A DNA stretch of 35,234 nucleotides from Clostridia bacterium (GTDB taxonomy: Bacteria > Bacillota > Clostridia > Christensenellales > Aristaeellaceae), in NCBI GenBank assembly GCA_017471125.1, contig JAFUWR010000220.1:1-35234 (forward strand), read 5' to 3'. This document shows, in pieces, positions 3,252-35,040 of this stretch. Every line of letters starts with the position of its first letter. The first letter of the stretch is position 1. The notes under the pieces were generated by a model. It was not told where the DNA came from and did not search any database. It saw only the letters and a list, made by a program, of their open reading frames with translations. Position numbers and translations under genes: made by a program.

Positions 3252-4328
3252 TCATATCACGACCTGGTTCCTTCCCCCGTTCTTCCCCATGTACAGCTTG
3301 CGGTCGGCGCTCTCGATGATGGCGTCGACGGGGGACTGGAAGTCGTTCTCCTCCACGCCGATGGTGATGTTGATGGTGAAGTCGTGGCCCCCGAAGCTCA
3401 GCGGCATGCGGGCCACGGCCTCGCACAGGGCCTGCATCTCCTGCCCGCCGGCGTCGAGGTTCATCCCCGGCAGGAAGAAGCAGAACTCCTCCCCGCCCCA
3501 CCGGCAGACGCTGTACGCCTCGCCCGCGGCCTCCCGGAAGCGGTCGGCCAGCGCCCGCAGGGTGTAGTCGCCGCAGTTGTGGCCGTAGGTGTCGTTGACC
3601 CGCTTGAAGAAGTCGATGTCCGCGATGGCGATGCAGAAGTGCTCCTCGGGAAAGCCCACCTGGAATGCGTCGATGGCGTCCAGCATGGCGCGGCGGTTGG
3701 GCAATTGGGTCAGCGGGTCGGTGCCCGCCTCCCGGTGCAGCTCCTGGTTGTCGATGCGGAGCTGACGCTCGGCCTCCTGGAGGTCGGTGCTCAGATGGGC
3801 GCAGATCGTGGCCAATATCAGCGATATGGTGATGGAATTGAGCGATTGATAGAACATGCTGTCCGCGTTGGACAGCGCGCAGGTGGGGACGTGGACGGTG
3901 GAATACCGAAACAGCGCCATCCGCAGCCCCACCTGCGCCGCGAACCAGGCCGCCTTGAGCCACGGCGGCTCGTAGATGTTGAAGAATATGAGCACCATCA
4001 GCGGCAGCAGCAGGTGCTGCGCGCCGGTGCTCCAGCCGAAGGCGTGGACGCACCACGCCGACCAGATGGCGTTCGTCGCCGCGTACATGTACACGCAGGC
4101 CCGGGCGTTCACCCGCCCGATGGACCGCCGGCACGCCGCCGCCGCCGCGAGCATCAGAAGCGGCATCCAGTGCCAGCCGTCGCCCCGCATGCCGTACAGG
4201 AGGAAGCACAGCGGAAAGTACGCCATGAGCAGGCTGACGCCGGCCACCAGCGCGCTGCGATAGTAGCCCGGCAGGTCCTTCCCCGCCCGCGGCACCTTCT
4301 GCCTGAAAAACGCTTCGAGATGTTTCAT
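3252..4328 (-). CDS. Integral-membrane diguanylate cyclase, GGEEF variant (358 aa)
   Basis: Hydrophobic N-terminal half, then DPLTQLPNRRAM...IADIDFFKRVNDTYGHNCGD...CRWGGEEFCFFLPG. A 16-nt gap separates it from the next GGDEF gene, so the operon reads 4328 -> 1377. Confidence 0.9.
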   Translation of the reverse strand: MKHLEAFFRQKVPRAGKDLPGYYRSALVAGVSLLMAYFPLCFLLYGMRGDGWHWMPLLMLAAAAACRRSIGRVNARACVYMYAATNAIWSAWCVHAFGWSTGAQHLLLPLMVLIFFNIYEPPWLKAAWFAAQVGLRMALFRYSTVHVPTCALSNADSMFYQSLNSITISLILATICAHLSTDLQEAERQLRIDNQELHREAGTDPLTQLPNRRAMLDAIDAFQVGFPEEHFCIAIADIDFFKRVNDTYGHNCGDYTLRALADRFREAAGEAYSVCRWGGEEFCFFLPGMNLDAGGQEMQALCEAVARMPLSFGGHDFTINITIGVEENDFQSPVDAIIESADRKLYMGKNGGRNQVVI

Positions 4329-4374
4329 GGCCCGTCCGTCTTCCCCTTCGTATATGGGTATCCATATTACCTAT

Positions 4375-4403
4375 ATTATGCCAAAGATCGCGAATGTTTT
4401 CAA
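4375..4403 (-). promoter_or_regulatory. Candidate sigma-A promoter of the GGDEF-GGDEF-cobB operon
   Basis: Reverse strand: TTGAAA (complement of 4398..4403), 17-nt spacer, CATAAT (complement of 4375..4380). A GAAGGGGAAG SD precedes the ATG at 4328. Confidence 0.4.
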
Positions 4404-4548
4404 GCCCTTTTTACAATAATATTTTCAGTTTTGCGACAGATATTACAGATGTGTTTCCCAAAGGCCAGAAGCCGCCCGGCGGTCTGGTATATTATCTCCC
4501 ATCAAACTAATACACTATTAGTGTGATTATATATCTATTAGTATTGCC

Positions 4549-4590
4549 CCAAAACCAGCGCCATAACATTTGTTCTGGCGCTGGTTTTGG
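4549..4590. repeat. 42-nt near-perfect palindrome covering the first codons of pilin P1
   Basis: Left arm is ccaaaaccagcgccataaca (4549..4568). The spacer is tt. Right arm is tgttctggcgctggttttgg (4571..4590). The arms are reverse complements apart from one position (t4564). The right arm is the conserved pilin signal-peptide coding stretch, and the left arm is an inverted copy of it. Confidence 0.85.
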
Positions 4591-6023
4591 TGATGAGCCT
4601 TTTCACCAGCATGAGTGCGTTTGCGACTAGCATCAAGATTACTCCTGCCGAAGGATACAACCCAGACGATAACACTGTTGCTGAAACTTATCATGCGTAT
4701 AAGATTTTCAGCGCTGTAACTCCTTCGGGCTATGAAGGCGTTAACGATGACAATATTGAGACCGCCAAGACCTCTACGGATGTTGGTTTTCAGTATAAGC
4801 TGAGCGGGACCACCGATCCCTGGTATACTGCTGTTAATGCCTCTGGTTATTTTGATTTTAGCACTCAGTCTGATGGAAGCATCATTGCGACTTTGAAAAG
4901 CGCATATAATGCGGATGCATCTACTGCTCAAGCGATCGCTACTGCCTTAAAGCCCTATACCAAGGACGTAGATGCAACGAATGGTATCAATTGGAATTAT
5001 AACCTGACTCTCAATACAGCGCAGACAGTCGATGATGGCTACTATCTGATAGTTTCTTCTCTTGGTGAAAAGCTTGTGCTGGCTACTGCTGATATTGAGA
5101 TAACTGAGAAGAACACCTATCCTGGCGTAGACAAGACTCAGAAGGACCTTGACGACGGTAGTGCCTACATTGATGCTACCCTTGACACTCATGACAACGT
5201 AAGCGTTGCTGTTGGCGATGAGATTTCTTACCAGGTTAAGGTGACCATCCCCGCCACGATCAATGGAAACATTGTTGTGACAGATACCATGTCTGCTGGC
5301 TTGACTTTTGATAAGGATGCAGAAAACGCAATTACCGCAGACAAGGGCACCAAAGATACCGATTGGGCTATCACGTCCAGCAGCGCCCAGGGATGGGTTA
5401 TCACGATCAGCCCCACTACTGCCATGAAGGCTGCTGGCGACATCACTTTCACCTTTAAGGCCAAGGTGAACAGCAGCGCCGTTGTTGCGGATACCACCCG
5501 TAGGAACTCTGTAAAACTGGAGTATAGCAACTTCGAGCAGAACGACTATGTCCCCTTCGAACTCAAGTCTGCTGCCATCTATAAGTATGATGGAAATACG
5601 AGCACTGCTCTTGAAGGCGTTGTGTTCACCCTGAAGGAAGGGGACACTGAATTCCCGGTGTCTTACGATGCGACGAACGGTTACTATTACTATGATGCCG
5701 AAAATGGTTCCGCTGACATCTCAACCGGCGATGACGGTATGATCATTATTCGTGGCTTGGACGGTGACAAGGCTTACACCCTCACTGAGAAGACTCCGAA
5801 GCCTGGCTATAACACCCTGTCCGCTCCTGTCAGTCTGACCTTGCAGGCTATTGACTTTGAATTCACTACCAGCAATGCCGATCAGGTTGAGAACAACAAG
5901 GGCGCTGAGCTGCCCAGCACTGGCGGCATCGGCACCACCATCTTCTACGTGGCTGGCTCCATCATGGTCCTCGCTGCTGCAATCCTGCTGATCACTAAGA
6001 GGCGCATGGGTGCGAACGACTAA
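4587..6023 (+). CDS. LPXTG-anchored pilin-like / isopeptide-type fimbrial subunit P1 (start uncertain)
   Basis: Contains ...SMSAFA|TSIKITP..., YHAYKIF, GYYLIVS, an E-box-like AYTLTEKTPKPGYN, and C-terminal ELPSTGGIGTTIFYVAGSIMVLAAAILLITKRRMGAND. LPSTG lies at 5910..5924. The only starts available sit inside the hydrophobic core: TTG 4587, GTG 4590 and ATG 4593. There is no SD. Confidence 0.8.
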   Translation: MVMSLFTSMSAFATSIKITPAEGYNPDDNTVAETYHAYKIFSAVTPSGYEGVNDDNIETAKTSTDVGFQYKLSGTTDPWYTAVNASGYFDFSTQSDGSIIATLKSAYNADASTAQAIATALKPYTKDVDATNGINWNYNLTLNTAQTVDDGYYLIVSSLGEKLVLATADIEITEKNTYPGVDKTQKDLDDGSAYIDATLDTHDNVSVAVGDEISYQVKVTIPATINGNIVVTDTMSAGLTFDKDAENAITADKGTKDTDWAITSSSAQGWVITISPTTAMKAAGDITFTFKAKVNSSAVVADTTRRNSVKLEYSNFEQNDYVPFELKSAAIYKYDGNTSTALEGVVFTLKEGDTEFPVSYDATNGYYYYDAENGSADISTGDDGMIIIRGLDGDKAYTLTEKTPKPGYNTLSAPVSLTLQAIDFEFTTSNADQVENNKGAELPSTGGIGTTIFYVAGSIMVLAAAILLITKRRMGAND

Positions 6024-6120
6024 TTCCTACGTAGATCCTCGTGGATAGGATGCGTCTGGACAGGCTATAGAGCCTTTAGCAGGCCTCACAGCCTCCACAG
6101 TCGCCTCACATCCACACACT

Positions 6121-6857: not shown

Positions 6858-6890
6858 CTACGCCAGCACCATTGTGATCATGGCTGCGGC
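6858..6890 (-). pseudogene. Degenerate fragment of a pilin sorting-signal 3' end
   Basis: The reverse strand gcc gca gcc atg atc aca atg gtg ctg gcg tag reads AAAMITMVLA*. This resembles AAAILLITKRRMGA(N/G)(D/E)* with an internal deletion. It lies immediately 3' of P2. Confidence 0.4.
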
Positions 6891-6906
6891 GTTGGGCAGT
6901 TGCTGC

Positions 6907-7393
6907 TTATTCGCCAGCACCCATGCGGCGCTTGGTGATCAGCAGAATCGCAGCGGCCAGAACCATCAGAGAACCAGCAACGTAGAAGATGGTGGTGCCG
7001 ACGCCGCCGGTGCTGGGCAGGGTTGCACCAGTATAGTTGATCCAGAACCAAATACCATCCGGGAACAGCAGCATAGGTGGTCGTGGTGCCGTCCAGAGTC
7101 GCTACCTCAGTACCGAGGTTGTCCTTGTTGGCGGCAGCCCAAGCACGAGCGGTGGTAATAGCATCAAGAGTAGCCTCAGGAACGGGGCCCGTCAAGCCGC
7201 CCGGATAGCTGGAACCATACTGAACATCAGTCAGCTTACCAGCATTGTCCCCAGTGCCAGGAGTACCGGTGAAAATCTGATAAACTTTATAGGTATGAGT
7301 CACAGCATCATTGTCCCTATTAACAGTGATGTTGTAGGTCACCGGATCATCAGCAAAAGCCGGGATCATGGAAGCGATCATCATCGCCGCCAA
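6907..7393 (-). pseudogene. Pilin P2: internally deleted, frameshifted pilin gene
   Basis: The N-terminal frame reads (L)AAMMIASMIPAFADDPVTYNITV..HTYKVYQIFTG...AAVPGWYLVLD. Near 7038..7043 the reading frame changes, and ...INYTGATLPSTGGVGTTIFYVAGSLMVLAAAILLITKRRMGAGE* (stop 6907..6909) continues in a different frame. The roughly 400-aa core found in P1/P3/P4 is missing. The upstream ATG conserved in P3/P4 is ATA here. Confidence 0.75.
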
Positions 7394-7482
7394 AACCAGC
7401 GCCAGAACAAATAATCTGGCCTCGCTATCACCACACTACATATAGACACTACATCCGCCCCATCAGTATCACGATTTTCCCC

Positions 7483-7718: not shown

Positions 7719-8531
7719 TTAGTCCGTTCCTTCTCCTCCCTGACCACGGAAGTCATGGCTACTCTCAAACAACCAATGCTCATACGGGCTCTCCCAGTGA
7801 GGATTCTCAAATCCCCTAAATCCTGTGGACATCTTGATATTGAACGCGGGCAGCATCGTTTGTATTTCCTGATTGATGTACTTGTACAGCTTCTCTTTCG
7901 CAATCGTCCGCTTCCCGCGCGTCCGCGCGCCGTCAGGCTTCACCAGGTGCAGATCATTCATTCGGAACTGCATCGCGCCGAGGATGATGTCGGTGCATTG
8001 CAGGATCACATGATCGTGGGAGCAGACTTCCGCGATATCTTCCCGGCGGATATGAACCCGGCTGCCGGCATAGTCTCGCGTGTTTGGCAGGTTCAACAGA
8101 TAGTCTTTGAAGCGTTCCCGCTTCTCTCGCGTGTCAGGTAGTTCGTCCAGATAGATGCGAACGAAGCACTCTTCCGGCGTGGTCCTCAATCCGAAACTGT
8201 GCTTGAGGAACTGGTAGTAGAGCTTGAAATACTTGTCCCGGTTTTTGTCGATGGGGGCTGAGCTCGTTTCCCGAAACATAATGCGGAAGCGAATCTTCCC
8301 GGCTCGGATAAAATCGAAGAATAGATGGATGAGTTCCTCATACTTCTCCAAATAGTTCGGTGTGACCTTGATCCACTTTACTTCACGGAGGAGGTTGAGT
8401 TCCGTTTTTTTATTATTTAGAGCGGTTGTAATCTCCTCCAGATATTGGAAAGGGAGAATGCAGCCTCCGAAGAAATCGCTGTATAGCGTGCCCTTGTCCA
8501 GGGATTCGTCGCAGTAGATAACGTATTCCAC
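7719..8531 (-). CDS. DUF3800-family protein (about 270 aa)
   Basis: I take the N-terminus as (V->M)EYVIYCDESLDKGTLYSDFFGG, matching my recollection of the DUF3800 opening (hydrophobic-Y-x-DES). GTG at 8531 has an AGGAG SD 7 nt upstream. The track ORF begins further upstream at TTG 8591, which I consider less likely. Confidence 0.65.
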   Translation of the reverse strand: MEYVIYCDESLDKGTLYSDFFGGCILPFQYLEEITTALNNKKTELNLLREVKWIKVTPNYLEKYEELIHLFFDFIRAGKIRFRIMFRETSSAPIDKNRDKYFKLYYQFLKHSFGLRTTPEECFVRIYLDELPDTREKRERFKDYLLNLPNTRDYAGSRVHIRREDIAEVCSHDHVILQCTDIILGAMQFRMNDLHLVKPDGARTRGKRTIAKEKLYKYINQEIQTMLPAFNIKMSTGFRGFENPHWESPYEHWLFESSHDFRGQGGEGTD

Positions 8532-8562
8532 AGTTTGGCTCCTGGTGTGAATAATTTCCCTG

Positions 8563-8591
8563 ATTATACCATGATAGGTGACGGAGCGCAA
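8563..8591 (-). promoter_or_regulatory. Promoter of the DUF3800 gene
   Basis: Reverse strand: TTGCGC (complement of 8586..8591), 17-nt spacer ending in TGG, then TATAAT (complement of 8563..8568). This is an extended -10. Confidence 0.5.
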
Positions 8592-8763: not shown

Positions 8764-10404
8764 TTAGTCGTTGGCACCCATGCGACGCTTGGTGATCAGC
8801 AGGATGGCAGCAGCCAGAACCATGATGGAACCAGCCACATAGAAGATCGTGGTGCCGATGCCGCCGGTGGAGGGCAGGGTAGCGCCAGACTTATTCTCGA
8901 TCTGGCCAAAGATCTCGCCAGAGCCGAGTTCATCGGTAGTTCCGTCGATCTTAGTGTCAACAGTCTCAGTACCACTGCCATCGGCCTTATCACGAGTAAA
9001 GGTAAACTCACCGCCGCTGGGAGAGGCAGCATAACCAGTCGGGCCATTCAAGGCAGTGATGCTGTATACACCAGTAGTGCCATCAGCTGCAATGGTACGG
9101 GTGATGGAGAAGCTCAGAGGATCCATCGTGTTATATCCGTCAGGGGTAGTGGTCTCAACGAGGAGGTAGTCGCCAGCATCCAAGCCATCGAACTCAAAGT
9201 TAGTAACGCCAGTGATTTCCTGATCAACGGTGTAATAATCCGTATAATCAGTCAGAGTGCAAGCATCACCATACCGGTCATTAGTATCGTCAGCACCAGA
9301 AGCAAGCTTCTTATACAGGGTGAAACCAGCACCGGTCTTCGCTTCATAACCAGATTTGTCAGCCTTGGCTACGATCTTGTCTACATCCATCTTGTAGGTG
9401 AACACGACCGTAGTATCGTCGGGAGTGTCGCCAGTCTCTTCACCGCCCTGATCGTCATTGGGGTTGTTAGAGTATTCGACATGGCTGGTATTGGGGTTGC
9501 CAGGGTTGCCATAGACAACACCAGTACTATTCAGGGTAGAAGTGTAGTACACGCTGATAACAGAACCAGCTGCGACTTCGCCAATTTCCTTCAAATTGGC
9601 AAAGACGACTTCGAAGGCGCAATCATCATCAAGGCCAGTAGTTACAACCTCGAACCCTTCGGTGATCTCTGTATCACCAACATAAACCTTCACTGTGCTA
9701 GCATTGAAGGTCAGACCCTCACACTGCTCATCATGAAAGGTCAGATGATAAATCTTATAATTATCATACTGGTCGGTGATGGTAGCAGTCAGTTTAAAGG
9801 GAACCTCATCGCCGATGTCGTAGTCAGCATAATCACCGTAAGTCAGCCCCTTCAGATCGCTCAAGTCAATGTCAGTCGAGCTATCATTGTTTTCAGCAAC
9901 ATCCTTAGTAGAGGTGGTGGTATTTGCCTTACGAGTGATAGTGACATCACCCACAACCTTCACGATGTACAGGGAATACTCGTCACCCTCACCAGGCGTG
10001 AAACCAGAGGCATCCTTGATAAGATAATAGCCAGCCGGGACACTCGTCAAAGAAGCTCCAGCAGCAACGCCAGCCGCATAAGTACTACCATCAGCATAGG
10101 CATTCACGGCAACAGCAGTCTCTTGCGCGTCATTATCCATAGCGGCTAGGGTATCAAGCACATTTTGAGCAACAACGCCAGTGTTACTACTGCCAGAACC
10201 CCACTGTACATTAGACAAAACACCATCATACAGATCACCAGTAAAAATCTGATAGACATCATATGTGTGGGTAAAACCGGTCGAATCCGTAGGCATAGTC
10301 AGAGTAAAAGTCTGAGCATCAGCCATGGCCGGGATCATGGAAGCGATCATCATCGTCGCCAATACCAGCGCCAGAACAAAAAATCTGGCCTCGCCATCAA
10401 TCAA
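8764..10404 (-). CDS. LPXTG-anchored pilin-like protein P3 (546 aa from the TTG start)
   Basis: Reads (TTG)MIDGEARFFVLALVLATMMIASMIPAMA|DAQ..., then HTYDVYQIFTGD, GYYLIKD, an E-box DYLLVETTTPDGYN, and C-terminal TLPSTGGIGTTIFYVAGSIMVLAAAILLITKRRMGAND. No SD precedes the TTG. Confidence 0.88.
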   Translation of the reverse strand: MIDGEARFFVLALVLATMMIASMIPAMADAQTFTLTMPTDSTGFTHTYDVYQIFTGDLYDGVLSNVQWGSGSSNTGVVAQNVLDTLAAMDNDAQETAVAVNAYADGSTYAAGVAAGASLTSVPAGYYLIKDASGFTPGEGDEYSLYIVKVVGDVTITRKANTTTSTKDVAENNDSSTDIDLSDLKGLTYGDYADYDIGDEVPFKLTATITDQYDNYKIYHLTFHDEQCEGLTFNASTVKVYVGDTEITEGFEVVTTGLDDDCAFEVVFANLKEIGEVAAGSVISVYYTSTLNSTGVVYGNPGNPNTSHVEYSNNPNDDQGGEETGDTPDDTTVVFTYKMDVDKIVAKADKSGYEAKTGAGFTLYKKLASGADDTNDRYGDACTLTDYTDYYTVDQEITGVTNFEFDGLDAGDYLLVETTTPDGYNTMDPLSFSITRTIAADGTTGVYSITALNGPTGYAASPSGGEFTFTRDKADGSGTETVDTKIDGTTDELGSGEIFGQIENKSGATLPSTGGIGTTIFYVAGSIMVLAAAILLITKRRMGAND

Positions 10405-10571: not shown

Positions 10572-11438
10572 ATGCCACGCAAGCGTACCCGGAAGGCCAA
10601 CCGCAAGGCAAAGGATTCTGTATTCGTGGATCTGTTCCACCAGAAGAAGTATTGCCTACAGTTGTTTAAGTCCCTTCATCCGGAGATGGACGTCACTTCT
10701 TCTGACATCAAGACGATCACGCTCAAGCACATCGTCGTGGACCGGCAATACAATGATCTGGGCATTCTCGTCCAGGACAAGCTCATCATCTTGATCGAGG
10801 CTCAGTCCAAGTGGAGCGATAATATTCTGCTTAGGCTTTGGTTTTATGCATCTGACACCTACCTGACGCAGATCAAGAACAATCCTGCCTGGGACGTACA
10901 TGATACGAAGGCTATTCCACTTCCGCCACCGGAGTTTGTAGTGATTTACACAGGAAACCGAGATATCCCGCCGACCGTCAGCTTGAGAGAGCACTTCTTT
11001 AAGAATGCTAATGTGCCAATCGACTTGATCGCGAAGGTAATCCGGCAGGAAGGCAACGATATCATCGGCCAGTACATCACATTCTGCCATGTGTTCGATG
11101 ACATGGTGAAGAATTACGGACAGACCCGGAAAGCGGTGGAAGAAACGATAAGGATTTGCAGGGACAAAGGCGTCCTTGCAGAATATCTCCGAGACAGAGA
11201 AGAGGAGGTAATCGAAGCTATGGTTATGTTGTTTGATCAGCAGACTGCTGTTGAGCAGTACGGGGACAGAAGAGAGGCTGAGGGAGAGGCGAAAGCAACC
11301 GCCGCTGCCACCGAACGCGACAAGCGGCGTGTGTTAAAGCTGTTTGCAAAGGGAAACAGTCCGGAAGAGATCGCCGACGACATGGAGTTGGATTTGAAAT
11401 TGGTCAAAGAATGGCTTGCGGCACCCTCGATGGCGTGA
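10572..11438 (+). CDS. Rpn-family recombination-promoting nuclease / PD-(D/E)XK putative transposase (288 aa)
   Basis: Contains KDSVFVDLFHQKKYCLQLFKSLHPE and NDLGILVQDKLIILIEAQSKWSDNILLRLWFYASDTY, which I read as the D...E-x-Q nuclease core typical of this family. The C-terminal tail KGNSPEEIADDMELDLKLVKEWL looks HTH-like. The SD is AGGGGGTGA (10557..10565). Confidence 0.8.
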   Translation: MPRKRTRKANRKAKDSVFVDLFHQKKYCLQLFKSLHPEMDVTSSDIKTITLKHIVVDRQYNDLGILVQDKLIILIEAQSKWSDNILLRLWFYASDTYLTQIKNNPAWDVHDTKAIPLPPPEFVVIYTGNRDIPPTVSLREHFFKNANVPIDLIAKVIRQEGNDIIGQYITFCHVFDDMVKNYGQTRKAVEETIRICRDKGVLAEYLRDREEEVIEAMVMLFDQQTAVEQYGDRREAEGEAKATAAATERDKRRVLKLFAKGNSPEEIADDMELDLKLVKEWLAAPSMA

Positions 11439-11489: not shown

Positions 11490-11555
11490 ATATTACTAAT
11501 AGAGCGGAAATAAGACTTACAGAGATGCGGAAATGGCAGGGTCAGATTTTTTCTC

Positions 11556-13313
11556 GTGGCGCTGGTGCTGGCAGTCATGATGCTGCTGGTCAGCGTAAGC
11601 GCATTAGCTGCTACAATTGAAAATAAGACCGACCATTCTTATGATGCCTATCAGATTTTTGCAGGAACTCATGTTGCTGGTGAAACCACAGGCAAACTGG
11701 GTGTTACTGGTTGGGGTAGCGGTATTAATGGAGATGCGTTTCTTACCGCATTGAAATCAAACTCTGCTTTTAATAAGACTACCGGTACAGGCGAGGATGC
11801 TGTAACTGAGAATGTTTTCAAAGACGCTAAGACTGCCGCTGATGTCGCTTCTATCCTTGGTGATAATGCCACTGATAAGAGTGATTTTGCAAAGGCTTTT
11901 GCGCTTGAAGCTGAGAAGCATCTCAAGACAGAAAAAACTGCCATCGCAGCTGGTGCTACAACTGCTGAACTCCTGGGCTATTATCTGCTTGTGGACACTC
12001 AGACTCTTGAAGATGGAGATGCCAAGAACCTTTCTCTGTTGGAGGTAACCGGCAAAGAGAAGTTCACTATCGAGAAGAAGTATGATAAGCCCTCTCTCGA
12101 TAAGGACATCATTGAGGATGATGCAAATGTCGAGGCAGCCGACAAGAATATCGGTGATACTATTACTTACGAGCTTCGTGGTACTTTGCCTTCCAACCTT
12201 GGAGACTTCACCAAGTATTACTTTGAGTTCTCCGATACTCTGTCTAAGGGCCAAGCGTATCAGGGCGATATAAAGGTCTACTTGAACGAAGTTAAGGCAA
12301 AAAATGACATCACTGGTAAGTTCACCATCAAGCATTCCACTGATAAGGGTGCTACTGACAAAACTGACGGTGCCTCTGCTACTGAATTCTCGATCAAAAA
12401 TGAGGACATTTTGGCTGCTTCCACTGGTATTGCCGGCGTGAAGGGCAGTGATGTTATCATTGTTCGCTATACCGCGATTCTGACAAAGGACGCTACCGTT
12501 GGGTCTACGGGCAACGAGAACAAGGCCAAGTTGACTTACTCCAGCAATCCGAACTATAATGGTGATGGCGAAAAGAAGGATACCCCCGAGGACAAGACCC
12601 TTGTTTTCACCTATGAACTGGATACCACCAAGGTTGACGGCGCTGAAGTTACCGTTCCCGATGGCGCGACCTATTATAATGCAGACGATACTGCTGCTGC
12701 TGACGCCTCTGAAGCCGCATATGCAACTGCCGACGGCGTGACGTATACCAAGGATGCTGCTGGTAAATGGCACAAGGCTATCGAAGGCGCTGAGTTCAAG
12801 CTGTATCGTATGAATGGAACCGACAAAGAATATGTCGTGCTTGAAGCCAGCTCTACCAAGGTTAAGAGTTGGACGAAGACCATTGGGGAAGCAACTGTTT
12901 TGACTTCTGCTGCAAACACGGGTCTGTTTGAAGTGTCTGGCTTGGATGCCGGTACTTACTACCTGGTTGAGACCAAGGCTCCCACTGGTTACAACCTGCT
13001 TAATGATCCTGTGAAGGTTGTAATTGCTGCGACTATCACTGGCTCAACCACTGGTACTGTGGGCGCGGCTGATGATCATGATAAGGTTGCTCCCGCTTTG
13101 ACCGCTCTCACTATCGCGGTAAACGATGGCACTGCCCAGAATGGTAAGTTAGCTACTGGTGAAGTCAAGGATACCATCGCCAATAATGGCGGTAATGTCC
13201 TCCCCTCTACCGGCGGCATCGGCACGACGATCTTCTACGTGGCTGGCTCCATCCTGGTCCTGGCTGCTGCGATCCTGCTGATCACCAAGCGTCGCATGGG
13301 TGCCAACGACTGA
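11556..13313 (+). CDS. LPXTG-anchored pilin-like protein P4 (585 aa from GTG 11556; true start unclear)
   Basis: Reads (GTG)ALVLAVMMLLVSVSALA|ATIENK..., then HSYDAYQIFAG, GYYLLVD, KPSLDKD, an E-box TYYLVETKAPTGYN, and C-terminal VLPSTGGIGTTIFYVAGSILVLAAAILLITKRRMGAND. In frame upstream the sequence is stop-DLQRCGNGRVRFFL with no start codon and no SD. Confidence 0.88.
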   Translation: MALVLAVMMLLVSVSALAATIENKTDHSYDAYQIFAGTHVAGETTGKLGVTGWGSGINGDAFLTALKSNSAFNKTTGTGEDAVTENVFKDAKTAADVASILGDNATDKSDFAKAFALEAEKHLKTEKTAIAAGATTAELLGYYLLVDTQTLEDGDAKNLSLLEVTGKEKFTIEKKYDKPSLDKDIIEDDANVEAADKNIGDTITYELRGTLPSNLGDFTKYYFEFSDTLSKGQAYQGDIKVYLNEVKAKNDITGKFTIKHSTDKGATDKTDGASATEFSIKNEDILAASTGIAGVKGSDVIIVRYTAILTKDATVGSTGNENKAKLTYSSNPNYNGDGEKKDTPEDKTLVFTYELDTTKVDGAEVTVPDGATYYNADDTAAADASEAAYATADGVTYTKDAAGKWHKAIEGAEFKLYRMNGTDKEYVVLEASSTKVKSWTKTIGEATVLTSAANTGLFEVSGLDAGTYYLVETKAPTGYNLLNDPVKVVIAATITGSTTGTVGAADDHDKVAPALTALTIAVNDGTAQNGKLATGEVKDTIANNGGNVLPSTGGIGTTIFYVAGSILVLAAAILLITKRRMGAND

Positions 13314-13706: not shown

Positions 13707-13784
13707 GTAGGGGCGGCGTTGCGCCGCCCGCCAGATACACCGATGCGAAATATACTCGGGCGGGCGCCGCAACGGCGCCCCTAC
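13707..13784. repeat. GC-rich REP-like palindromic element (copy 1)
   Basis: GTAGGGGCGGCGTTGCGCCGCCCGCC (13707..13732) and GGCGGGCGCCGCAACGGCGCCCCTAC (13759..13784) are inverted 26-mers with 2 mismatches. Each arm is also a hairpin on its own (GGCGGCG-TTG-CGCCGCC). A partial extra arm lies at 13811..13832. Confidence 0.8.
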
Positions 13785-14068: not shown

Positions 14069-14097
14069 TTGACACCTTTACCGCGCTGTGCTAAACT
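14069..14097 (+). promoter_or_regulatory. Promoter of the second Rpn-like gene
   Basis: TTGACA (14069..14074), 17-nt spacer, TAAACT (14092..14097). Confidence 0.55.
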
Positions 14098-14126
14098 ATA
14101 CTCACACCGAGCAAGGAGAAGCCGCT

Positions 14127-14936
14127 ATGCCCCACTACCTCTCATCCCGCGAGGAGAAGATCGACGCCGCGCGTCGCATGAATCTGTTTTCCGATTTGTT
14201 CATGTCCGTGGCGCTGGATGATCGGCTCGCCTGTGAATACGTTCTTCGTATCCTAACGGGCATCCCATCCTTGGCGGTGCTTGAGATGCGCACACAGTAC
14301 CGTGTGAATAACATGATCGCCCGAGATGTCATTTTTGACGTTTTGGCTCAGGATGAAACGGGAAGGCTATACAACATTGAGGTGCAACGAACGGATACGC
14401 TCGATCACCCACGCCGCGTGCTTCTCTATGCGTCTGAATTGATAACTGAGTTTATGCGGAAGGGAAGCTCTGTGGACGATACGCCGGAAGTCTACATCTT
14501 TTATTTGAGTGAGACAGACATCTTAAAGACCGGTAAAAGTATTGCATGGGTAGAAAAGCGGTTGGCTGGGGAACCGTATTGCGACGGCCTTCACATCGCA
14601 TTTGCCAATGCGGAGGTGGATGACGGAAGCGAAGTGGCGGGGCTGATGCGGTATTTCAAAACCGCCGACCCGGATGATCTATCGCATGGCTCTCTTTCAC
14701 GGCGCATACACCTTTTGAAAAAGGAAAAGGAGGGCGAGGAACTCATGTGCCAGATCTCAGATAAGTTTGTTCAGGAAGGAAAGGTCCAGGGAAAAGTCGA
14801 AAGCATCGTCAATCTTACCGCCAAGATGTCCATCTCTGATGAAACTGCTATGGAATTGGTCGGTGTTGATGAAAAGGAACGTCCCCTTTATGCTGCATAC
14901 GTGAAAGAGATGAGGCGTGCAATGGCGACGGCTTAG
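14127..14936 (+). CDS. Rpn-family / PD-(D/E)XK nuclease-family putative transposase, second subfamily (269 aa)
   Basis: An AAGGAGA SD (14113..14119) precedes the ATG at 14127. The protein reads MPHYLSSREEKIDAARRMNLFSDLFMSVALDD...ARDVIFDVLAQDETGRLYNIEVQRTD...RRVLLYASELI, carrying the NL..D.LF and D..D..G..YN.E.Q signatures. The C-terminus has a QEGKVQGKVE-type repeat. Confidence 0.78.
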   Translation: MPHYLSSREEKIDAARRMNLFSDLFMSVALDDRLACEYVLRILTGIPSLAVLEMRTQYRVNNMIARDVIFDVLAQDETGRLYNIEVQRTDTLDHPRRVLLYASELITEFMRKGSSVDDTPEVYIFYLSETDILKTGKSIAWVEKRLAGEPYCDGLHIAFANAEVDDGSEVAGLMRYFKTADPDDLSHGSLSRRIHLLKKEKEGEELMCQISDKFVQEGKVQGKVESIVNLTAKMSISDETAMELVGVDEKERPLYAAYVKEMRRAMATA

Positions 14937-14948
14937 TGGTAAAAAACG

Positions 14949-15009
14949 CTGCCCCCTCCACCGGCTCGCCCTGCTGATCACCAAGCGTCGCATGGGCGCC
15001 AACGACTGA
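14949..15009 (+). pseudogene. Relic of a pilin sorting-signal end (P5 remnant)
   Basis: ctgccccctccaccggc is LPSTG coding with one extra c. It is joined to ctgctgatcaccaagcgtcgcatgggcgccaacgactga (LLITKRRMGAND*). The hydrophobic segment has been deleted. The last 39 nt differ from the P4 end (13274..13313) at one base. Confidence 0.75.
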
Positions 15010-15092
15010 TACTCGTTGCAACCGCCCCATTCGGAACGTGCGTGACGGCGACCGAGGCCGAATAGCCCCATGATCGACGTCCCGCGCACCCT

Positions 15093-15306: not shown

Positions 15307-16302
15307 ATGAAGAAGAAGCTGATACGGATCGCCATCATCCTGCCCTGCGCCGTGATCGCGCTGGGCATTTTGGCGTCCCTGTTGTCCCACGCCGTCTACG
15401 GGCGCACGCTGCGGGCGTCGGTCTACGAGGTCGTGCTGCGCCGCCGCTACGCAAATCCCCGCACGCCGGAGGAGGAGGTCGCCCGGCTGGAGGCCAAGCG
15501 CGACAAGGGCGAGAAGCCCTACACGCTGCCCGACGACCTCAAATTCAGCGTGCCCATCGAGGCCACCGACCGCGACGGCACGCAGGTGTTCGTGCTCAAC
15601 GGCGACGCGCCCCGGGACGTGATCGCGCTGTACCTGCACGGCGGCGCGTACATCAACCCCTTCAACGCCTACCAGTGGCGGTTCATGGACCGGCTGGCCG
15701 CGGAGGCGGACTGCCCGGTGGTGGCCCCGGCCTACCGCCTCGCGCCCTTCGCCACCTATGCCGACGCCTACGCTGACCTGACCGCGCTGTACCGGGACCT
15801 GCTGGACAAGAACCCCGACAGCCGCATCGCGCTGATGGGCGACTCCGCCGGCGGCGGGCTGGCGCTGGGCCTGGCCGAATACTGGCGCGACGAGGGCCTG
15901 CCCCTGCCCGACCGGCTGATCCTGTTCTCCCCGTGGGTGGACGTGTCCATGGACAACTCCGACATCCTGCCGCTGACCGCCATCGAGCCCATCCTCCACC
16001 TGGAGCTGGTGAAGCTCCACGGCATATACTGGGCCGGCGGGCAGGACACCCATCACTGGCAGGTCAGCCCCCTCTACGGCGACATGGCGGGCCTGCCCCC
16101 GGTGACGCTCTACTGCGGCACCCGGGAGCTGCTGCTGCCCGACATCACCCTCGCCGCGGATAAGCTCGCCGCCGCCGGGAACGACGTCGATCTCCACGTC
16201 GCCCGGGGCCTCAACCACGACTACCCCCTCATGCCCATCCCCGACGCCGAGCCCGCGGTGCGGGAGGCGATCGCCATCGTCAAAGCGCTGGAGGCACCAT
16301 GA
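15307..16302 (+). CDS. Membrane-anchored alpha/beta hydrolase, HSL-type esterase/lipase (331 aa)
   Basis: N-terminal TM segment MKKKLIRIAIILPCAVIALGILASLL. The oxyanion motif is LYLHGGAY and the nucleophile elbow is GDSAGG. Confidence 0.88.
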   Translation: MKKKLIRIAIILPCAVIALGILASLLSHAVYGRTLRASVYEVVLRRRYANPRTPEEEVARLEAKRDKGEKPYTLPDDLKFSVPIEATDRDGTQVFVLNGDAPRDVIALYLHGGAYINPFNAYQWRFMDRLAAEADCPVVAPAYRLAPFATYADAYADLTALYRDLLDKNPDSRIALMGDSAGGGLALGLAEYWRDEGLPLPDRLILFSPWVDVSMDNSDILPLTAIEPILHLELVKLHGIYWAGGQDTHHWQVSPLYGDMAGLPPVTLYCGTRELLLPDITLAADKLAAAGNDVDLHVARGLNHDYPLMPIPDAEPAVREAIAIVKALEAP

Positions 16303-18251
16303 CGAACACGAGCATAGCCATACTCGCCCACGTGGACGCGGGCAAGACGACATTTTCAGAGCAGATCCTCTGCCACGCTGGGGTGCTGCGCGCGGCGGGC
16401 CGGGTAGACCACGGCGACGCCTTCCTGGACGCGCACCCGCTGGAGCGCCAGCGCGGCATCACCATATTCTCCGACCAGGCGACGTTCGAGCGCGGGGGTC
16501 GGCGCTTCTTTTGGGTGGACACCCCGGGCCACGCGGACTTCGCCGCGGAGATGGAGCGGGCGCTGACGGCGGCGGACCACGCGGTGGTGCTGGTGTCCGG
16601 CGCGGAGGGCGTACAGGGCCACACGGAGACCATCTGGGCGCTGCTCGAGCGGCTGTCGATCCCGGCGTTCATATTCGTGAACAAGACCGACCGGGCGGGC
16701 TTCGACGCCGCCGCGACCTTGGGCGACCTGAAGCGCCGCCTGTCCCCGGACTGCGTGGACATGTCGGGCTTCGCGGGCGGGGACATGCCCGAGGCCGTCA
16801 TAGAGGCCGTGGCGGAGCGGGACGAGGCGCTGCTGGACAGGCTCATGGCCGACGACTACGACCCGGACGCCTGGCTCAGCGCCCTGCGCGGCGAGATCGG
16901 GCGGCGCGACCTGTTCCCGGTCTACTTCGGCTCGGCGCTGAACGACGCGGGCGTGGCGGCGTTTCTGGACGCGCTGTGCCTGCTGACCGAGGGCGTCGCC
17001 CCGGACGACGCGCCCTTCGACGCGCTGGTCTACAAGGTGCGCCACGACGCCCAGGGCGGGCGGCTGACGTTCTTCAAGGTGCTGTCCGGCAGCGTGGGCG
17101 TGCGCGAGGAGGTCGCCCTGCCCGGCGGCGGTGCCGCCAAGCTCAACGAGCTGCGGCTGTATTCCGGGCCGAAGTACAGGCCCGTCCCCCGGGCGGAGCG
17201 TGGCATGCTGGTGGCCGCGGCGGGACTATCGTCGGTGAAGCCCGGCGACCGCCTCGGCGCGGGCCGGGACATCCGCGGCCGCTTCGCCACCGAGCCCATG
17301 CTGGCCGCCTCGGTGGAGTGGGACGGATCTATACCCGCCGCCCGCGTGCTCCAGGCGCTTCGGCAGCTCGAGGCCGAGGACCCCGCGCTGAACGTGGCGT
17401 ATTCGGAGGCCACCGGCTCCATCGACGTGGACGTGATGGGCCCCATCCAGTTGGAGGTCTTGAAGCAGCTCCTCCTGGACCGCTTCGGCCTCGACGTGAC
17501 CTTCGGCAGGCTCCGGGTGATGTACATGGAGACCATCGCCGCCCCCGCCGTCGGCATCGGCCACTACGAGCCCCTGCGCCACTACGCCGAGGTGCAGCTT
17601 CGGCTGTCGCCGGGCGCGCCGGGCAGCGGCATCACCTTCGTCTCGAAGTGCCACGTGGACGAGCTGGCCCTGAACTGGCAGCGGCTCATCGAGACCCACG
17701 TGTTCGAGAAGGCGCACAAGGGCGTGCTCACCGGGGCGCGGCTGACGGACGTGAAGGTCGAGCTGCTCCACGGGCGGGCGCACCTCAAGCACACCGAGGG
17801 CGGCGACTTCCGCCAGAGCACCTACCGCGCCATCCGCAACGCGCTGATGTACGCGCCGTCCGTGCTGCTGGAGCCCATCTGCCGGTTCAGCCTGCGGTTC
17901 CCCCGGGACGACTATGGCCGGGTGATGGGCGACCTGACCCGCATGCAGGCCAAGCTCGACCTGCCCGACATGACCGGCGACGCCTGCGCCCTGGACGGGG
18001 AGGCGCCCTTCGCCGAGTTCTCCGGCTACATCGCCGGCTTCATGGCCGCCACCCACGGCCGCGGCGCTCTGCGCTACCGGCTGGCGCGCTACGCCCCCTG
18101 CCGCGACGCCGACGCCGTCGTCGCCGACGCCCATTACGACCCCCTCGCCGACGACACCCCCGACTCCGTGTTCTGCTCCCACGGCGCGGGCCACGTGGTC
18201 CCCTGGGACCAGGTCCGCGAATTTGCCCACACGCCGGTGGATGTCGTCTAA
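16299..18251 (+). CDS. Translation-factor GTPase of the Tet(M)/Tet(O) ribosomal-protection-like family (650 aa)
   Basis: Reads IAILAHVDAGKTTFSEQIL (G1), LERQRGITI, DTPGHADF (G3) and FVNKTD (G4). Length and layout resemble 639-aa Tet(M). It overlaps the esterase stop as ATGA. Confidence 0.85.
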   Translation: MTNTSIAILAHVDAGKTTFSEQILCHAGVLRAAGRVDHGDAFLDAHPLERQRGITIFSDQATFERGGRRFFWVDTPGHADFAAEMERALTAADHAVVLVSGAEGVQGHTETIWALLERLSIPAFIFVNKTDRAGFDAAATLGDLKRRLSPDCVDMSGFAGGDMPEAVIEAVAERDEALLDRLMADDYDPDAWLSALRGEIGRRDLFPVYFGSALNDAGVAAFLDALCLLTEGVAPDDAPFDALVYKVRHDAQGGRLTFFKVLSGSVGVREEVALPGGGAAKLNELRLYSGPKYRPVPRAERGMLVAAAGLSSVKPGDRLGAGRDIRGRFATEPMLAASVEWDGSIPAARVLQALRQLEAEDPALNVAYSEATGSIDVDVMGPIQLEVLKQLLLDRFGLDVTFGRLRVMYMETIAAPAVGIGHYEPLRHYAEVQLRLSPGAPGSGITFVSKCHVDELALNWQRLIETHVFEKAHKGVLTGARLTDVKVELLHGRAHLKHTEGGDFRQSTYRAIRNALMYAPSVLLEPICRFSLRFPRDDYGRVMGDLTRMQAKLDLPDMTGDACALDGEAPFAEFSGYIAGFMAATHGRGALRYRLARYAPCRDADAVVADAHYDPLADDTPDSVFCSHGAGHVVPWDQVREFAHTPVDVV

Positions 18252-18256
18252 ATGCC

Positions 18257-18423
18257 TTGCGGGGCTTTCTCAAATTGAATAGGACTGCATAGAACAGTCG
18301 TAGGGGCGCCGTTGCGGCGCCCGCCCGAGTACATATCACAGCGTTGTACCCGGCGGGCGGCGCAACGCCGCCCCTACGATCACATATAGCTGTATCACTA
18401 TCCGCTTTGAGACAGCCCCGCAA
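18257..18423. repeat. 167-nt palindromic REP/MITE-like element (copy 2) filling a convergent intergenic gap
   Basis: The outer inverted repeat pairs TTGCGGGGCTTTCTCAAA (18257..18274) with TTTGAGACAGCCCCGCAA (18406..18423). The inner 26-mers are GTAGGGGCGCCGTTGCGGCGCCCGCC (18300..18325) and GGCGGGCGGCGCAACGCCGCCCCTAC (18352..18377). It probably acts as a bidirectional terminator. Confidence 0.8.
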
Positions 18424-19169: not shown

Positions 19170-19237
19170 TGTAAACCCCCGGGGGTAATCGTCCGTGTAA
19201 CCCAGGGGGAGGTATAATGAAAGAGTTATAGAATGGC
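19170..19237 (+). promoter_or_regulatory. Promoter/leader block of the giant adhesin gene (homolog of 1262..1311)
   Basis: tGTAAACCCCCGGGGGTAATCGTCCG, then a partial duplicate tgtaacccaggggg, then TATAAT (19213..19218), then TTATAGAATGG. A 10-bp perfect palindrome CCCCCGGGGG lies at 19176..19185. A second palindrome TATGCGCATA sits in the leader near 19243. Confidence 0.5.
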
Positions 19238-19292
19238 TTTACGTATGCGCATATTTCAGCACACGAAACGCTCAAAAAACGGGGTGGAAGAT

Positions 19293-22200
19293 ATGGCAAA
19301 CAGCATCGACAAAATGGTACGGCAGGCAAAGAGCAGGCGCGTGCGCAAGCGCGTCCTGGCGCTGTTGGCGGTGGTGACGGTCTTTTTGACCTCCACCGGC
19401 CTGCGCTATGAGGTCATCGCGATGGACCGCGAGCCCAACTGCGGCCTCCTGGAGCACATGCACACCGAGGCGTGTCTGGACGACCTCGGCGCGCTCATCT
19501 GCGGCCTGGATGCCCACGTCCACACGGACGCCTGCTACCAGGACGCGCCCTACGCGCCCCTCGAGGCCGAGATAGAGGCGCCCCTCGAGGCCATCGAAGC
19601 CCCGGTGGAGGAGCTTGAGGCGATGGAGCTCGAGGCCGTGGACGAGTACGTACCGGAGGACGCGCTTCCCATCGAGGCGGAGACCCCCGCGCCCGAGTTC
19701 GTCTACGACATGAACGGCGCGGACCGCGCCCTGCTCAGCGACGTGCTGGCCGCGGCGGGCCTGGAGGTCGGCCTCGTGGACGAGGTCGGCGAGAGCGTGC
19801 TCAGCGACGACCAGGTCCCCTCCATCGCCGTGGAGCGCCGCGACGGGGACTACGCGATCACCGCCCTGCGCGACTTCATCGACGACGACCGGGTGGAGCT
19901 GGCCATCTTCGCCGCGGACGGCGGCGTGTACACCGTGCTGCTGGCCAACGGCGTCGTGCCCGTCGCGGCCACGGCTACGCCCGAGCCGACGGCAGCCCCC
20001 ACCGACACGCCCGAGCCGGAGTACACCGTCGCGCCCGAGCCGATGGACGACGACGAACCCGAGTACACCGTCGCGCCCGAGCCGATGGACGCCGGCGAGC
20101 CCGAGTACACCGTCGCGCCCGAGGTGGTCGAGCCGGCGGCGGAGGTCGACGCCTTTGAGCTGGGCGAGGCGACCCCGTCCGGCAAGCCTACCTATAATAT
20201 TGAAATCAATCTCTACGGCGAGACCGGCCCGTTCAGCCTGACCGCCTGGCTCGCGGACGCCATCGACCCCGAGGCCGACGACGCGCCCGCCTCCGAGTGG
20301 ACCATCGCCTATAACGATACCCTGTTTGAAGTCCTGCCCGACGGGGAGGACTGGCAGGTCATGCCCATCGGCGAATTCGACGAGACCGAGATCGACGTGG
20401 ACACCGGCGCGGCCCTGTACGCCGTCGCGCTGACCAACGCCGCCCCCGGCATGGACGCCCTCGAGACCGGCGTGGCCGTCATCCGCCCCGTGGACGGCGA
20501 CCTGCCCGCCGAGGCCGAGGGCCACGCCGACGTGCTGGACGCCGATGCCGCCGACGCTGCCTGGGCCCAGATCGAGAATTGGAAGGGCAGCCAGCTCCGC
20601 TTCGAGCGCACCTTCGCCGCCGCCCGCACCGCCGCCGCCGCGCCCAACGAGACCCGCGTGCAGGCCTTCGACATCGGCCTGGACAACGTGGACCCCGAGA
20701 CCTACGCCGAGGGTTTCGCCGTCACCGTGACCCTGCCCGAGGCCGTCTGCGGCCGCGACTTCCGCCTCTACCACATCCACGGCGACGGCGACATCGCCGA
20801 GATCGAGGACTTCGACCGCGTCGGCCACCCCGTCGATGACGCGAACGAGGTCGTCACCGCCTTCACCTTCACCACCGACCGCTTCAGCGAATTCGTGCTG
20901 GTCTACACCGTGGACTTCACCTATAACGGCTATACCTATCACATGCCCGGCGGCAGCCGCATGCTGCTGTCGAGCCTGCTGGACATCCTGCAAACGGGCA
21001 TCGCCATCGACGACGTGGCGGAGGTCGCGTTCTCCGATCCCGCGCTGGTCGACGTGCTCGCGTATGCCGACGCCCACGACTGGATGCTCAGGAGCCTCCA
21101 GCCCTTCGACACCCAGGAGACGCTGACCCTGACCCTGCAGAGCGGCGAGCAGACGATCATCTACGTGACGGATGAGGCGCAAGAGGCTTCAGACGGTACG
21201 ATGGACATCACCCACCTGCTGACCAAGGTCGGGGTCTACGAGAAGCAGGACGGCACATGGGTCAGCGCCGGTGATTCGGACAGCGCCGACCCGGTGAAAC
21301 TGCGCGGCGACAAGGAATACTATCTTGAATTCTCACTGGCCGAGGTGTTGAAGGCAAATGGCCAGTTCTCCGACGACGCTACGCCCATGAGGCTGTATCT
21401 GCCTGACGGGGTGCAGATCGTCGATGCGGCCCTGAATGGCAAAGAAGACACACTGACCATCAACCTGGGCGAGGATGGAGAATTCACCGGAAGCAAGGTC
21501 AAGTATGTCGCCAAGAGCGATAGCGATCCGCGGGGCTATATCGAGATCACTTGGAACGCGAACGATTCCACACAGTCGGATAAATTCGACGTGCTGACCG
21601 CCTCCGCCTTCGCGGAGATCACGCTGCGCTACAAGGTCAATATCACCACGGACACGGGCTCGATCAAGTTCAATGAATCCACGACCCTCAACGTCACCCC
21701 GGACAACAGCTTCGACGTGCACGCGACCAAGAAGGGCGAATTCGAGAAGGTCTGGAATGAAACGACCAATAAGTTTGACGCCCGCGTCAACTATACCGTC
21801 ACTGTGACCACCGACGGCAACGCTTCGCCTATACCGGTGAATGAGAATAAGACCCCGATCGAATATGCCAACAGCATCAAGGTGTCTGACCGCATCAACG
21901 GCGACCTGCTGGTGTATGACCCGAACAGCCTCGTCGTCACCCGCATGCCCGAGGATGAAAATACGCAGGGCGAAACCAAGGTATTGACCCTCAACGAAGA
22001 CTTTAGGATTATTACCGAAAATCCTGAGAGCACAAACGGCTTCGATCTGGAGATCATCAGCGACATTCAAGACAATGAGAAGGTCGTCATCACCTATTCC
22101 GCCGATGTGGATAAAACAAAGCTGGGCAACAACATGGGCACGGCGGAATCCACCGGCAACAGCGTGGCGGTCGAGGGCTCGGATTCCAGCGACACGGATT

Positions 22201-34913: not shown

Positions 34914-35040
34914 GGGGCTGTCTTAAAGCGGATAGCGATACCGCTATAAGCAATAGTAGGGGCGGCGTGGCGCCGCCCGCCGGGTACAACGCGATGGAGC
35001 GTACCCGGGCGGGCGCCGCAACGGCGCCCCTACGACTGTT
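34914..35040. repeat. REP/MITE-like palindromic element (copy 3, opposite orientation to copy 2)
   Basis: GGGGCTGTCTTAAAGCGGATAGCGATACCGCTATAAGCAATA, then GTAGGGGCGGCGTGGCGCCGCCCGCC (34956..34981), then GGCGGGCGCCGCAACGGCGCCCCTAC (35008..35033), then GACTGTT. It aligns with the reverse complement of 18257..18423 over roughly 130 nt. Confidence 0.8.

Follow-up and report, generated by a model that had tools for sequence, protein, structure and literature searches.

The pilin gene P1 carries, over its start region, a 42-nt near-perfect palindrome (positions 4549–4590) that is likely to be the scar of a one-step template-switch (quasipalindrome) mutation followed by a single later substitution, and P1 itself would now be a silent cassette or young pseudogene. 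The palindrome is present in the contigs of four public runs and absent from the relatives surveyed, two paralogs of P1 hold a short quasipalindrome at the same columns, and P1 lacks an in-frame start before its hydrophobic core. The template switch, its direction and the non-expression of P1 are what we infer.

A 42-nt palindrome at the start of P1

The stretch of DNA analyzed here (the window) is the entire contig C152 (35,234 bp), which belongs to a metagenome bin of 394 contigs that is 96% complete and 8.6% contaminated. GC content drops to 46–58% from ~4.3 to 15 kb, with flanks at 62–74%, and this island holds four SpaA-type LPXTG backbone pilin paralogs, P1–P4 (PF16569, PF17802, PF00746). 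P1 matches all three domains above their cut-offs (PF16569 1.5e-16, PF17802 7.6e-9, PF00746 3.4e-8). The features referred to below are the following.

4500–4548, plus strand: P1 leader before the patch; aligns with the P2, P3 and P4 leaders and contains the CTATTAGTA motif
4542–6023, plus strand: P1 open frame, beginning right after the in-frame TAG (4539–4541) and running to the stop; SpaA-type LPXTG backbone pilin
4549–4568, plus strand: left arm of the palindrome, CCAAAACCAGCGCCATAACA; inverted copy of the signal-peptide box
4569–4570, plus strand: palindrome centre TT; the same in the P2, P3 and P4 alignment columns
4571–4590, plus strand: right arm of the palindrome, TGTTCTGGCGCTGGTTTTGG; 20-nt box in signal-peptide coding DNA
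4587–6023, plus strand: P1 gene from the first in-frame canonical start (TTG)
6878–7393, minus strand: P2; body frameshifted
7390–7420, minus strand: P2 site; box and ancestral-type quasipalindrome GCCAGA-N8-TCTGGC; 10/20 arm columns complementary
7719–8591: DUF3800 gene
8764–10404, minus strand: P3; SpaA-type pilin paralog
10359–10404, minus strand: P3 site; TTG 10404 in frame, ATG 10397 out of frame, T6, quasipalindrome and box; 9/20 arm columns complementary
10572–11438: PDDEXK_2 (PD-(D/E)XK 'transposase', Rpn/YhgA-like) gene; match below Pfam's cut-off
11533–11571, plus strand: P4 site; ATG 11533 out of frame, T6 tract, diverged box; 7/20 arm columns complementary
11556–13313, plus strand: P4; ORF listed from GTG 11556
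14088–14936: PDDEXK_2 (PD-(D/E)XK 'transposase', Rpn/YhgA-like) gene
14970–15010: pilin 3′ fragment, 41 nt

The pilin 3′ ends, which hold the sorting signal, are 83–92% identical over 95–149 nt and occur in both orientations. With its frameshifted P2 and 41-nt pilin 3′ fragment, the island looks decayed. No serine or tyrosine recombinase was found among the 14 island ORFs and 3 window ORFs tested, for which the only matches were the two PDDEXK_2 genes and DUF3800. When the bin's own genome was searched for an expression copy, this contig alone gave matches, whether to the P3 protein, to the pattern of the box or to the conserved 3′ end; sortase genes are located on other contigs (C351, C102, C275).

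The palindrome consists of two 20-nt arms around a TT centre. The right arm, reverse-complemented, reads CCAAAACCAGCGCCAGAACA, and the two arms are complementary at 19/20 positions, the sole mismatch being T at 4564, where G would pair. In the P1 frame the right arm encodes ..FVLALVL... Allowing ≤3 mismatches, the perfect 20-mer has four sites in the window: 4549 (+) and 4571 (−), which are the palindrome arms, and 7390 (+) and 10359 (+), which are the 5′ ends of minus-strand genes. None of 100 dinucleotide-preserving shuffles contained a match.

The 42-nt hairpin has a predicted energy of −29.5 kcal/mol as RNA and −19.5 kcal/mol as DNA, and its 101-nt RNA context reaches −35 kcal/mol (z −4.3). 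As single-stranded DNA, 50 nt of P1 fold at −20.1 kcal/mol (z −8.0; shuffles equally good, 0/200), compared with −6.5, −5.5 and −4.6 kcal/mol at the same columns of P2, P3 and P4. The original prediction had described both a 20+2+20 palindrome with one mismatch and its capacity to form a 20-bp hairpin, and both descriptions hold.

Size alone does not make this palindrome unique, since the whole genome (3.19 Mb) contains ~163 comparable ones (arms ≥16 bp, ≤1 mismatch, loop ≤8). Those inspected among the 40 listed are terminator-like, showing a GC stem between an A-run and a T-run. What is distinctive in P1 is position and make-up: the palindrome is made of signal-peptide DNA and is without a T-run. 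An identity as an intrinsic terminator was ruled out because the GC stem has no directly following T-run; the stem runs into TGATGAGCC, and neither strand of 4300–4700 has a terminator-like site. The same interval also lacks, in a promoter scan, any plus-strand promoter of the sigma-70 type; visual inspection gives one candidate extended −10 element, TGGTATATT, at ~4485–4493. Nothing in 4300–4750 reached a gathering threshold in Rfam 15; the best scores were 19.2 bits for Thr_leader (threshold 55) and 18.1 bits for MIR5304 (threshold 75).

Presence of the palindrome in public runs

Four public runs, all from a single study and none of them listed as RNA, hold the region, and three of them may be source samples. 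The palindrome and both flanks are present in independent contigs of all four, which span 3982–5951 in X1, 3900–5951 in X2 and X3, and 4512–5023 in X4, the last with 0 differences from the window. Depth at the palindrome equals that of neighbouring DNA (10–16x in X1–X3, ~4x in X4). The original prediction had proposed a check for polymorphism or heterogeneity at this junction; the contigs of the four runs of this one study list no other letter, indel or joint at 4549–4590, with the reservation that these are Logan contigs, which drop rare variants, so a minority allele could be hidden.

Outside the palindrome, the contigs of X1, X2 and X3 differ from the bin contig only at eight clustered letters in 4116–4195, within the adjoining GGDEF gene. 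These differences may reflect strain mixing or an issue with the bin consensus.

The run contigs also contain joints elsewhere in the island. Joints at 6111/8762, 8878/11700, 5892/7379 and 5906/7197 connect opposite strands, and a 7021→7391 joint skips 369 nt in P2. Their short sides measure 32–42 nt at 90% likeness, and some are at full depth in three runs. The opposite-strand joints, at pilin 3′ ends or in DNA downstream, and the skip in P2 could stem from rearrangements, additional cassettes or copies of an intron. The list of joints for the four runs, drawn from contigs and leaving 135 loose ends aside, has none at 4549–4590, 7390–7420 or 10359–10389.

Comparison with P2, P3 and P4

We aligned the P1 5′ end with those of P2, P3 and P4 (alignment A1), in which P1 is gapless against P2 and P3 from 4547 to 4640. 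Identity to P2, P3 and P4 is 25/47, 26/47 and 21/47 in the leader (4500–4546), rises to 20/20, 19/20 and 15/20 in the right arm, and is just 19/50, 21/50 and 10/50 in the 50 nt beyond. Given that this following DNA is far less identical, the 20-mer is a conserved box inside the signal-peptide DNA. The left arm has identities of only 9/20, 7/20 and 9/20 and resembles nothing except its own right arm.

The complementarity between the arms is likewise specific to P1, at 19/20 as against 10/20, 9/20 and 7/20 in P2, P3 and P4. At the palindrome columns, P2 and P3 have a contiguous 6-bp stem formed by the inverted repeat GCCAGA-N8-TCTGGC. As read from A1, the left arms of P1 and P2 differ at 11/20 columns, and at 10 of these 11 the P1 base is the one complementary to the right arm. 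The remaining difference, T at 4564, disrupts a pairing still present in P2, P3 and P4.

P1 and P3 share CTATTAGTA, after which P3 continues with ATG and a T6 tract and P1 with the inverted copy. The upstream alignment of P1 with P3 in the original prediction was correct up to this divergence. Its further claim, that the palindrome removed a conserved ATG and T-tract, stands as regards the letters, which P3 has and P1 does not, but the ATG is out of the pilin frame in both P3 and P4.

The cassette leaders also have another inverted repeat, TACTAATAG..CTATTAGTA, with 16-nt arms at 81% in P3 (10399–10444). P1 has ACTAATAcacTATTAGT plus one more CTATTAGTA at 4506–4543. This repeat could be a putative operator or promoter element.

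Start codons of the four pilin genes

Translated in frame from 4530, P1 reads YIY*YCPKTSAITFVLALVLVMSLF..., the stop being the TAG at 4539, and codons 4542–4586 read YCPKTSAITFVLALV. Between this TAG and codon 4587, before the hydrophobic core, there is no in-frame ATG, GTG or TTG. The first canonical starts, TTG 4587, GTG 4590 and ATG 4593, lie inside or abut the stem. From 4587 the product reads MVMSLFTSMSAFA, a 13-residue leader before an AFA cleavage-like motif, with no charged N-region; in homologs this leader has ~25–30 residues. Because it lacks an in-frame start before the core and has only this 13-residue leader, P1 in its present form cannot yield a pilin that is secreted in the normal way. 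The pilin body itself is intact at 478 codons. The gene call on record begins at the internal ATG 4611 (470 aa), and users of the annotation should be warned that this start gives a 'pilin' without a signal peptide.

The sibling genes are also poor in starts. The ATG codons of P3 (10397) and P4 (11533) each open just a 15-codon ORF out of the pilin frame. The sole in-frame start of P3 is a TTG with no visible ribosome site, P4 starts at a GTG within the hydrophobic core, and P2 has no start. Since the ATG shared by P3 and P4 is out of frame, P1 was probably a start-poor cassette already. On the reading of these leaders, the palindrome probably overwrote a leader that was already defective rather than silencing an active gene. 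Start defects in the sibling leaders likewise suggest that the event was probably close to neutral. The silencing of P1 foreseen in the original prediction is in keeping with the lack of an in-frame canonical start before the core, but it needs correcting in that the leader was probably defective beforehand. The analyses made gave no support to its other suggestion, that translation of P1 depends on structure.

In P3 (10397–10380, minus strand) and P4 (11533–11556, plus strand) the ATG is followed by T6, and one extra T would place the ATG in the pilin frame. No length variants of these P3 and P4 T-tracts were seen in the contigs of the four runs.

Direction of change among relatives

Members of the family usually have an ATG and a K/R-rich N-region immediately ahead of the hydrophobic core. 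This arrangement is found in 11/12 complete pilin 5′ ends of genus relatives, together with a GGA-type ribosome site (the exception, L075, is start-less), and in 31/39 database homologs of P1, the other 8 beginning within or after the core. It is also found in all but one (L090, minus strand) of 86 5′ regions from 80 loci of other genomes, a survey of 88 ORF rows from which 2 without a detectable core were dropped. P3 and P4 retain an ATG at about the usual distance from the core. Given this family norm, the ATG kept by P3 and P4, and the likeness of the left arm to its own right arm, the palindrome is probably the derived state.

The longest close inverted repeat (≤1 mismatch, loop ≤12 nt) measures 20 bp in P1, 7, 10 and 6 bp in P2, P3 and P4 (windows of 131–141 nt for the four genes), and 5–11 bp in the 86 5′ regions of relatives (120-nt windows). 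The original prediction had noted that a palindrome conserved among distant homologs would point to a regulatory hairpin; it is absent from these 86 pilin 5′ regions, where 11 bp is the maximum. A pattern search of 185,579 species genomes gave 8 matches, all in records titled for other taxa, and the one inspected (L052) is a terminator-like hairpin. A P1-specific 25-mer just 3′ of the palindrome had 0 matches in metagenome_contigs, and the pattern of the normal P2/P3 site had 0 matches in genome_contigs.

When the 1.2-kb P1 region was compared with 40 relatives, the matches were GGDEF-gene fragments and one unrelated signal peptide, at the start of a sugar-binding-type protein (L037). The database homolog search found no P1 ortholog above 51% identity. 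Because this is the best homolog, the ancestral P1 leader is reconstructed from paralogs rather than orthologs; to judge from its absence in the 86 regions surveyed, the palindrome may be specific to the P1 lineage.

Two observations on other pilin leaders of the genus may be recorded. In another species (L083 2700–2850, contig G012:C395), an AT-rich pilin leader has no in-frame start before the core, and this pilin adjoins Schlafen/AlbA_2 and DUF4869 genes. In seven canonical pilins (L054, L055, L058, L059, L062, L067, L074), a hairpin CCATGC-N4-5-GCATGG can be seen by eye ~30–60 nt ahead of the ATG; it is a putative regulatory element that these genes may have in common.

A probable template-switch origin

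In the origin that we favour, the leader of a pilin paralog would already have held GCCAGA-N8-TCTGGC, a short and imperfect inverted repeat that is still present in P2 and P3. During DNA synthesis, a growing strand would have switched briefly to the opposite strand, copied the adjoining signal-peptide box (4571–4590) there and resumed in register, so that in a single step ~20 nt of leader (4549–4568) were overwritten with the reverse complement of the box. A later single substitution of G to T at 4564 would have produced the sole mismatch. The resulting P1 would be a silent cassette or young pseudogene with its pilin body intact.

The comparison with the paralogs provides support for this origin, which the original prediction had also named. 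A pre-existing imperfect inverted repeat is seen in P2 and P3, which stand in for the unmutated state of P1. The changes are clustered and raise complementarity, with 10/11 of them pairing with the right arm, and length is kept exactly, with no gap from 4547 to 4640.

Several points temper this argument. Divergence from the paralogs also affects the P1 flank (26/47 with P3), which makes low identity in the patch unexceptional taken alone; the case for template switching rests on the complementarity pattern and on polarity. Three positions beside the centre (ACA) were also converted, which fold-back at the old 6-bp stem would have spared; copying would thus have run inward through the old loop. 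By hand reading, microhomology at the outer junction is ≤1 nt. Finally, the box is an island of identity between paralogs with differing neighbouring DNA, and this, together with the second inverted box copy in another genome described below, could indicate selection or a directed process rather than accident.

Two other routes were rejected. Hairpin-opening (P-nucleotide-like) repair of a break would give a palindrome without a spacer and would preserve length exactly only by chance. Had two pilin sites undergone antiparallel site-specific recombination, a whole inverted pilin body would be expected to the left of the centre, but similarity ends after 20 nt.

Alternative explanations

We consider it unlikely that the palindrome is a selected element made of two boxes head to head, serving either as a DNA site or as a silencing RNA hairpin. 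As a DNA site it would bind a dimer or form a cruciform, on which a recombinase or the adjoining PD-(D/E)XK Rpn-like nucleases would act in cassette exchange. Such a function would fit the 20-nt box being far more conserved between P1 and P2/P3 than its flanks. It would also fit three Clostridia genomes (L090/G048, the RUG14376 record and the RGIG3778 record; loci L090, L206/L215 and L213/L217) in which a canonical pilin is paired with an inverted, start-less cassette, the two sharing a box. In these pairs the shared box is 20–23 nt long, or up to 36 nt at its widest reading, and has the same place in the signal peptide, the two genes are convergent, and they lie 3.9, 10.4 and 12.1 kb apart (the L090 boxes are at 1939–1974 and 5855–5890). 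This convergent architecture suggests switching by inversion; an alternative orientation of the three pairs was not seen.

The G048 genome (Oscillospiraceae) bears on the same question. Its start-less cassettes number at least five, and a box lies within 600 nt of the start of two of its contigs. Two of its start-less cassettes have an in-register inverted copy of the G048 box, 15–16 nt long, 72 nt upstream; three other aligned cassettes have unrelated sequence there. To judge from this alignment, G048 holds a second, independent inverted copy of a signal-peptide box. A PDDEXK_2 gene on G048:C40 (L189 11162–12031, minus strand), homologous to 14088–14936 (phmmer E 4.3e-33), lies ~1 kb from a start-less cassette, and phmmer found no such homolog in 80 other pilin loci (480 kb, 2.5-kb flanks). 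The same contig has a tyrosine recombinase gene (L189 18188–19381, plus strand) ~0.9 kb from another start-less cassette.

Several observations stand against a functional element. No recombinase is present among the 14 + 3 ORFs tested, the contigs of the four runs show no joints or variants at the box sites, and the genome lacks an expression copy carrying the box. An inverted box copy is found in 0/6 other cassette leaders (P2, P3, P4, L083, L215, L217), with arms only 2 nt apart there is nothing to invert, the mismatch disrupts a pair kept by the paralogs, and the island has its decayed look. For like reasons (arms 2 nt apart, no recombinase in the ORFs tested, no joints listed) an invertible element of the inverton or shufflon kind was rejected. 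The crossover site of a serine recombinase consists of two inverted half-sites around a 2-bp core. The geometry of the P1 palindrome, 20+2+20 with a non-palindromic TT centre, fits such a site; no recombinase gene was found among the ORFs tested, no partner site of the same form in the window, and no recombinant joint among those listed for the run contigs.

It is quite unlikely, in our estimation, that the patch was copied from the oppositely oriented 5′ end of P2 or P3 by ectopic template switching or short-patch gene conversion. The plus strand of P2 at 7390–7409 is exactly the perfect left arm, and the P3 copy differs from it at one position. The island pilins lie in both orientations with conserved 5′ boxes and 3′ ends (105–149 nt, 83–86%), and the opposite-strand joints among 3′ ends in the run contigs make exchange between copies plausible. 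However, homology to P2 and P3 stops exactly at 20 nt on both sides, so nothing marks either as the donor, and no joint at any of the three box sites is among those listed. The arm 2 nt away explains an in-register, length-neutral replacement without a distant partner. Since the P2 20-mer is identical to that of P1, the two donors are inseparable by sequence, and the inverted pilin 5′ end put forward in the original prediction survives to that extent; the 2-nt distance and the in-register return favour the gene's own arm.

A broader idea, which would join the P1 and G048 observations, strikes us as very improbable. Under it, gut Clostridia and this high-GC host would share a pilin cassette-exchange system that had spread between them, with the 20-nt box as its crossover or junction site. 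The inverted copies upstream of start-less cassettes (2 nt away in P1, 72 nt away in G048) would be recurrent, selected hairpin or cruciform DNA that initiates or marks recombination and that the Rpn-like nucleases might cut. A comparable case would be Neisseria pilE with the G-quadruplex that lies upstream of it.

Finally, although the window is one contig of a 394-contig bin with 8.6% contamination and has repeats in both orientations close by, a chimeric fold-back join made by the assembler or in library preparation is extremely improbable, since the palindrome is flanked by two different unique sequences and so is not a fold-back contig, and since independent k-mer contigs of 4/4 runs reproduce it and its flanks with 0 differences at the depth of neighbouring DNA, which argues against any assembly artefact.

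Relation to known systems

A template switch at the P1 start would belong to an ordinary, already known kind of mutation. One study (PMC7202029) identifies quasipalindromes as template-switch hotspots in E. coli. As in mutations of this kind, an imperfect inverted repeat in P1 would have been perfected by clustered changes templated from the other arm, with length kept. The P1 patch is long in comparison, with ~10 templated changes that extend a 6-bp stem to 20 bp, and it is a natural fixed allele reconstructed from paralogs, not a mutation observed in a reporter.

Short-range template switches, as described by Monttinen and Loytynoja (2022, PMC8794818), create a perfect stem in one step by copying of the complementary or nascent strand between four switch points, and mismatches arise later. 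The P1 stem, which would have been created in one step and have gained its mismatch later, resembles the cases in that paper. Those cases, however, are RNA genes with a functional stem, whereas the P1 stem lies over the start of a protein gene and appears function-destroying.

The island also invites comparison with surface-protein switching by inversion or cassette exchange, as in the Campylobacter fetus sap homologs, Moraxella pilin inversion (Piv) and Neisseria pilE/pilS. The likeness consists of paralogs in both orientations with conserved ends and variable bodies and, in relatives, a promoter and start in one copy only. Unlike in those systems, no recombinase was found among the ORFs tested here, nor an expression copy or a rearranged form at the boxes, and a palindrome is not the expected product of conservative inversion.

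In Bifidobacterium breve, G-tract slippage is reported to provide an ON/OFF switch of a pilus (PMC9187656). That switch, too, concerns a sortase-dependent pilin whose expression depends on a homopolymer near its 5′ part, to which the T6 tracts of P3 and P4 would be an analogous candidate. P1, in contrast to the switch described there, has lost the tract entirely, and the contigs contain no T-tract length variants.

For work on mutation mechanisms, P1 is a documented case of use: a clean natural example in which a single templated copying error would have built a 20-bp stem and erased the start region of a gene. The comparison also adds to the picture of the island, whose four pilin genes are start-poor cassettes and not ordinary expressed genes. 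If inverted box copies recur to serve cassette exchange, which is an unproven idea, the palindrome would gain wider interest; by itself it opens no new question.

Other features of the window

A 78-nt GC-rich element occurs in three copies (13707–13784, 18300–18377 and 34956–35033; 68–83% identical to the reference copy), which flank the right side of the island and a giant surface-protein gene. The element is itself palindromic, beginning with GTAGGGGCGGCG and ending with CGCCCCTAC. On the plus strand, 19233–34901 is a 5222-codon ORF with many internal direct-repeat families, and its end is weakly similar to the conserved pilin 3′ end (74% over 85 nt). An EF-G-like GTPase paralog (GTP_EFTU, EFG_III, EFG_IV, EFG_C) lies at 16299–18251 on the plus strand, in DNA of 70% GC.
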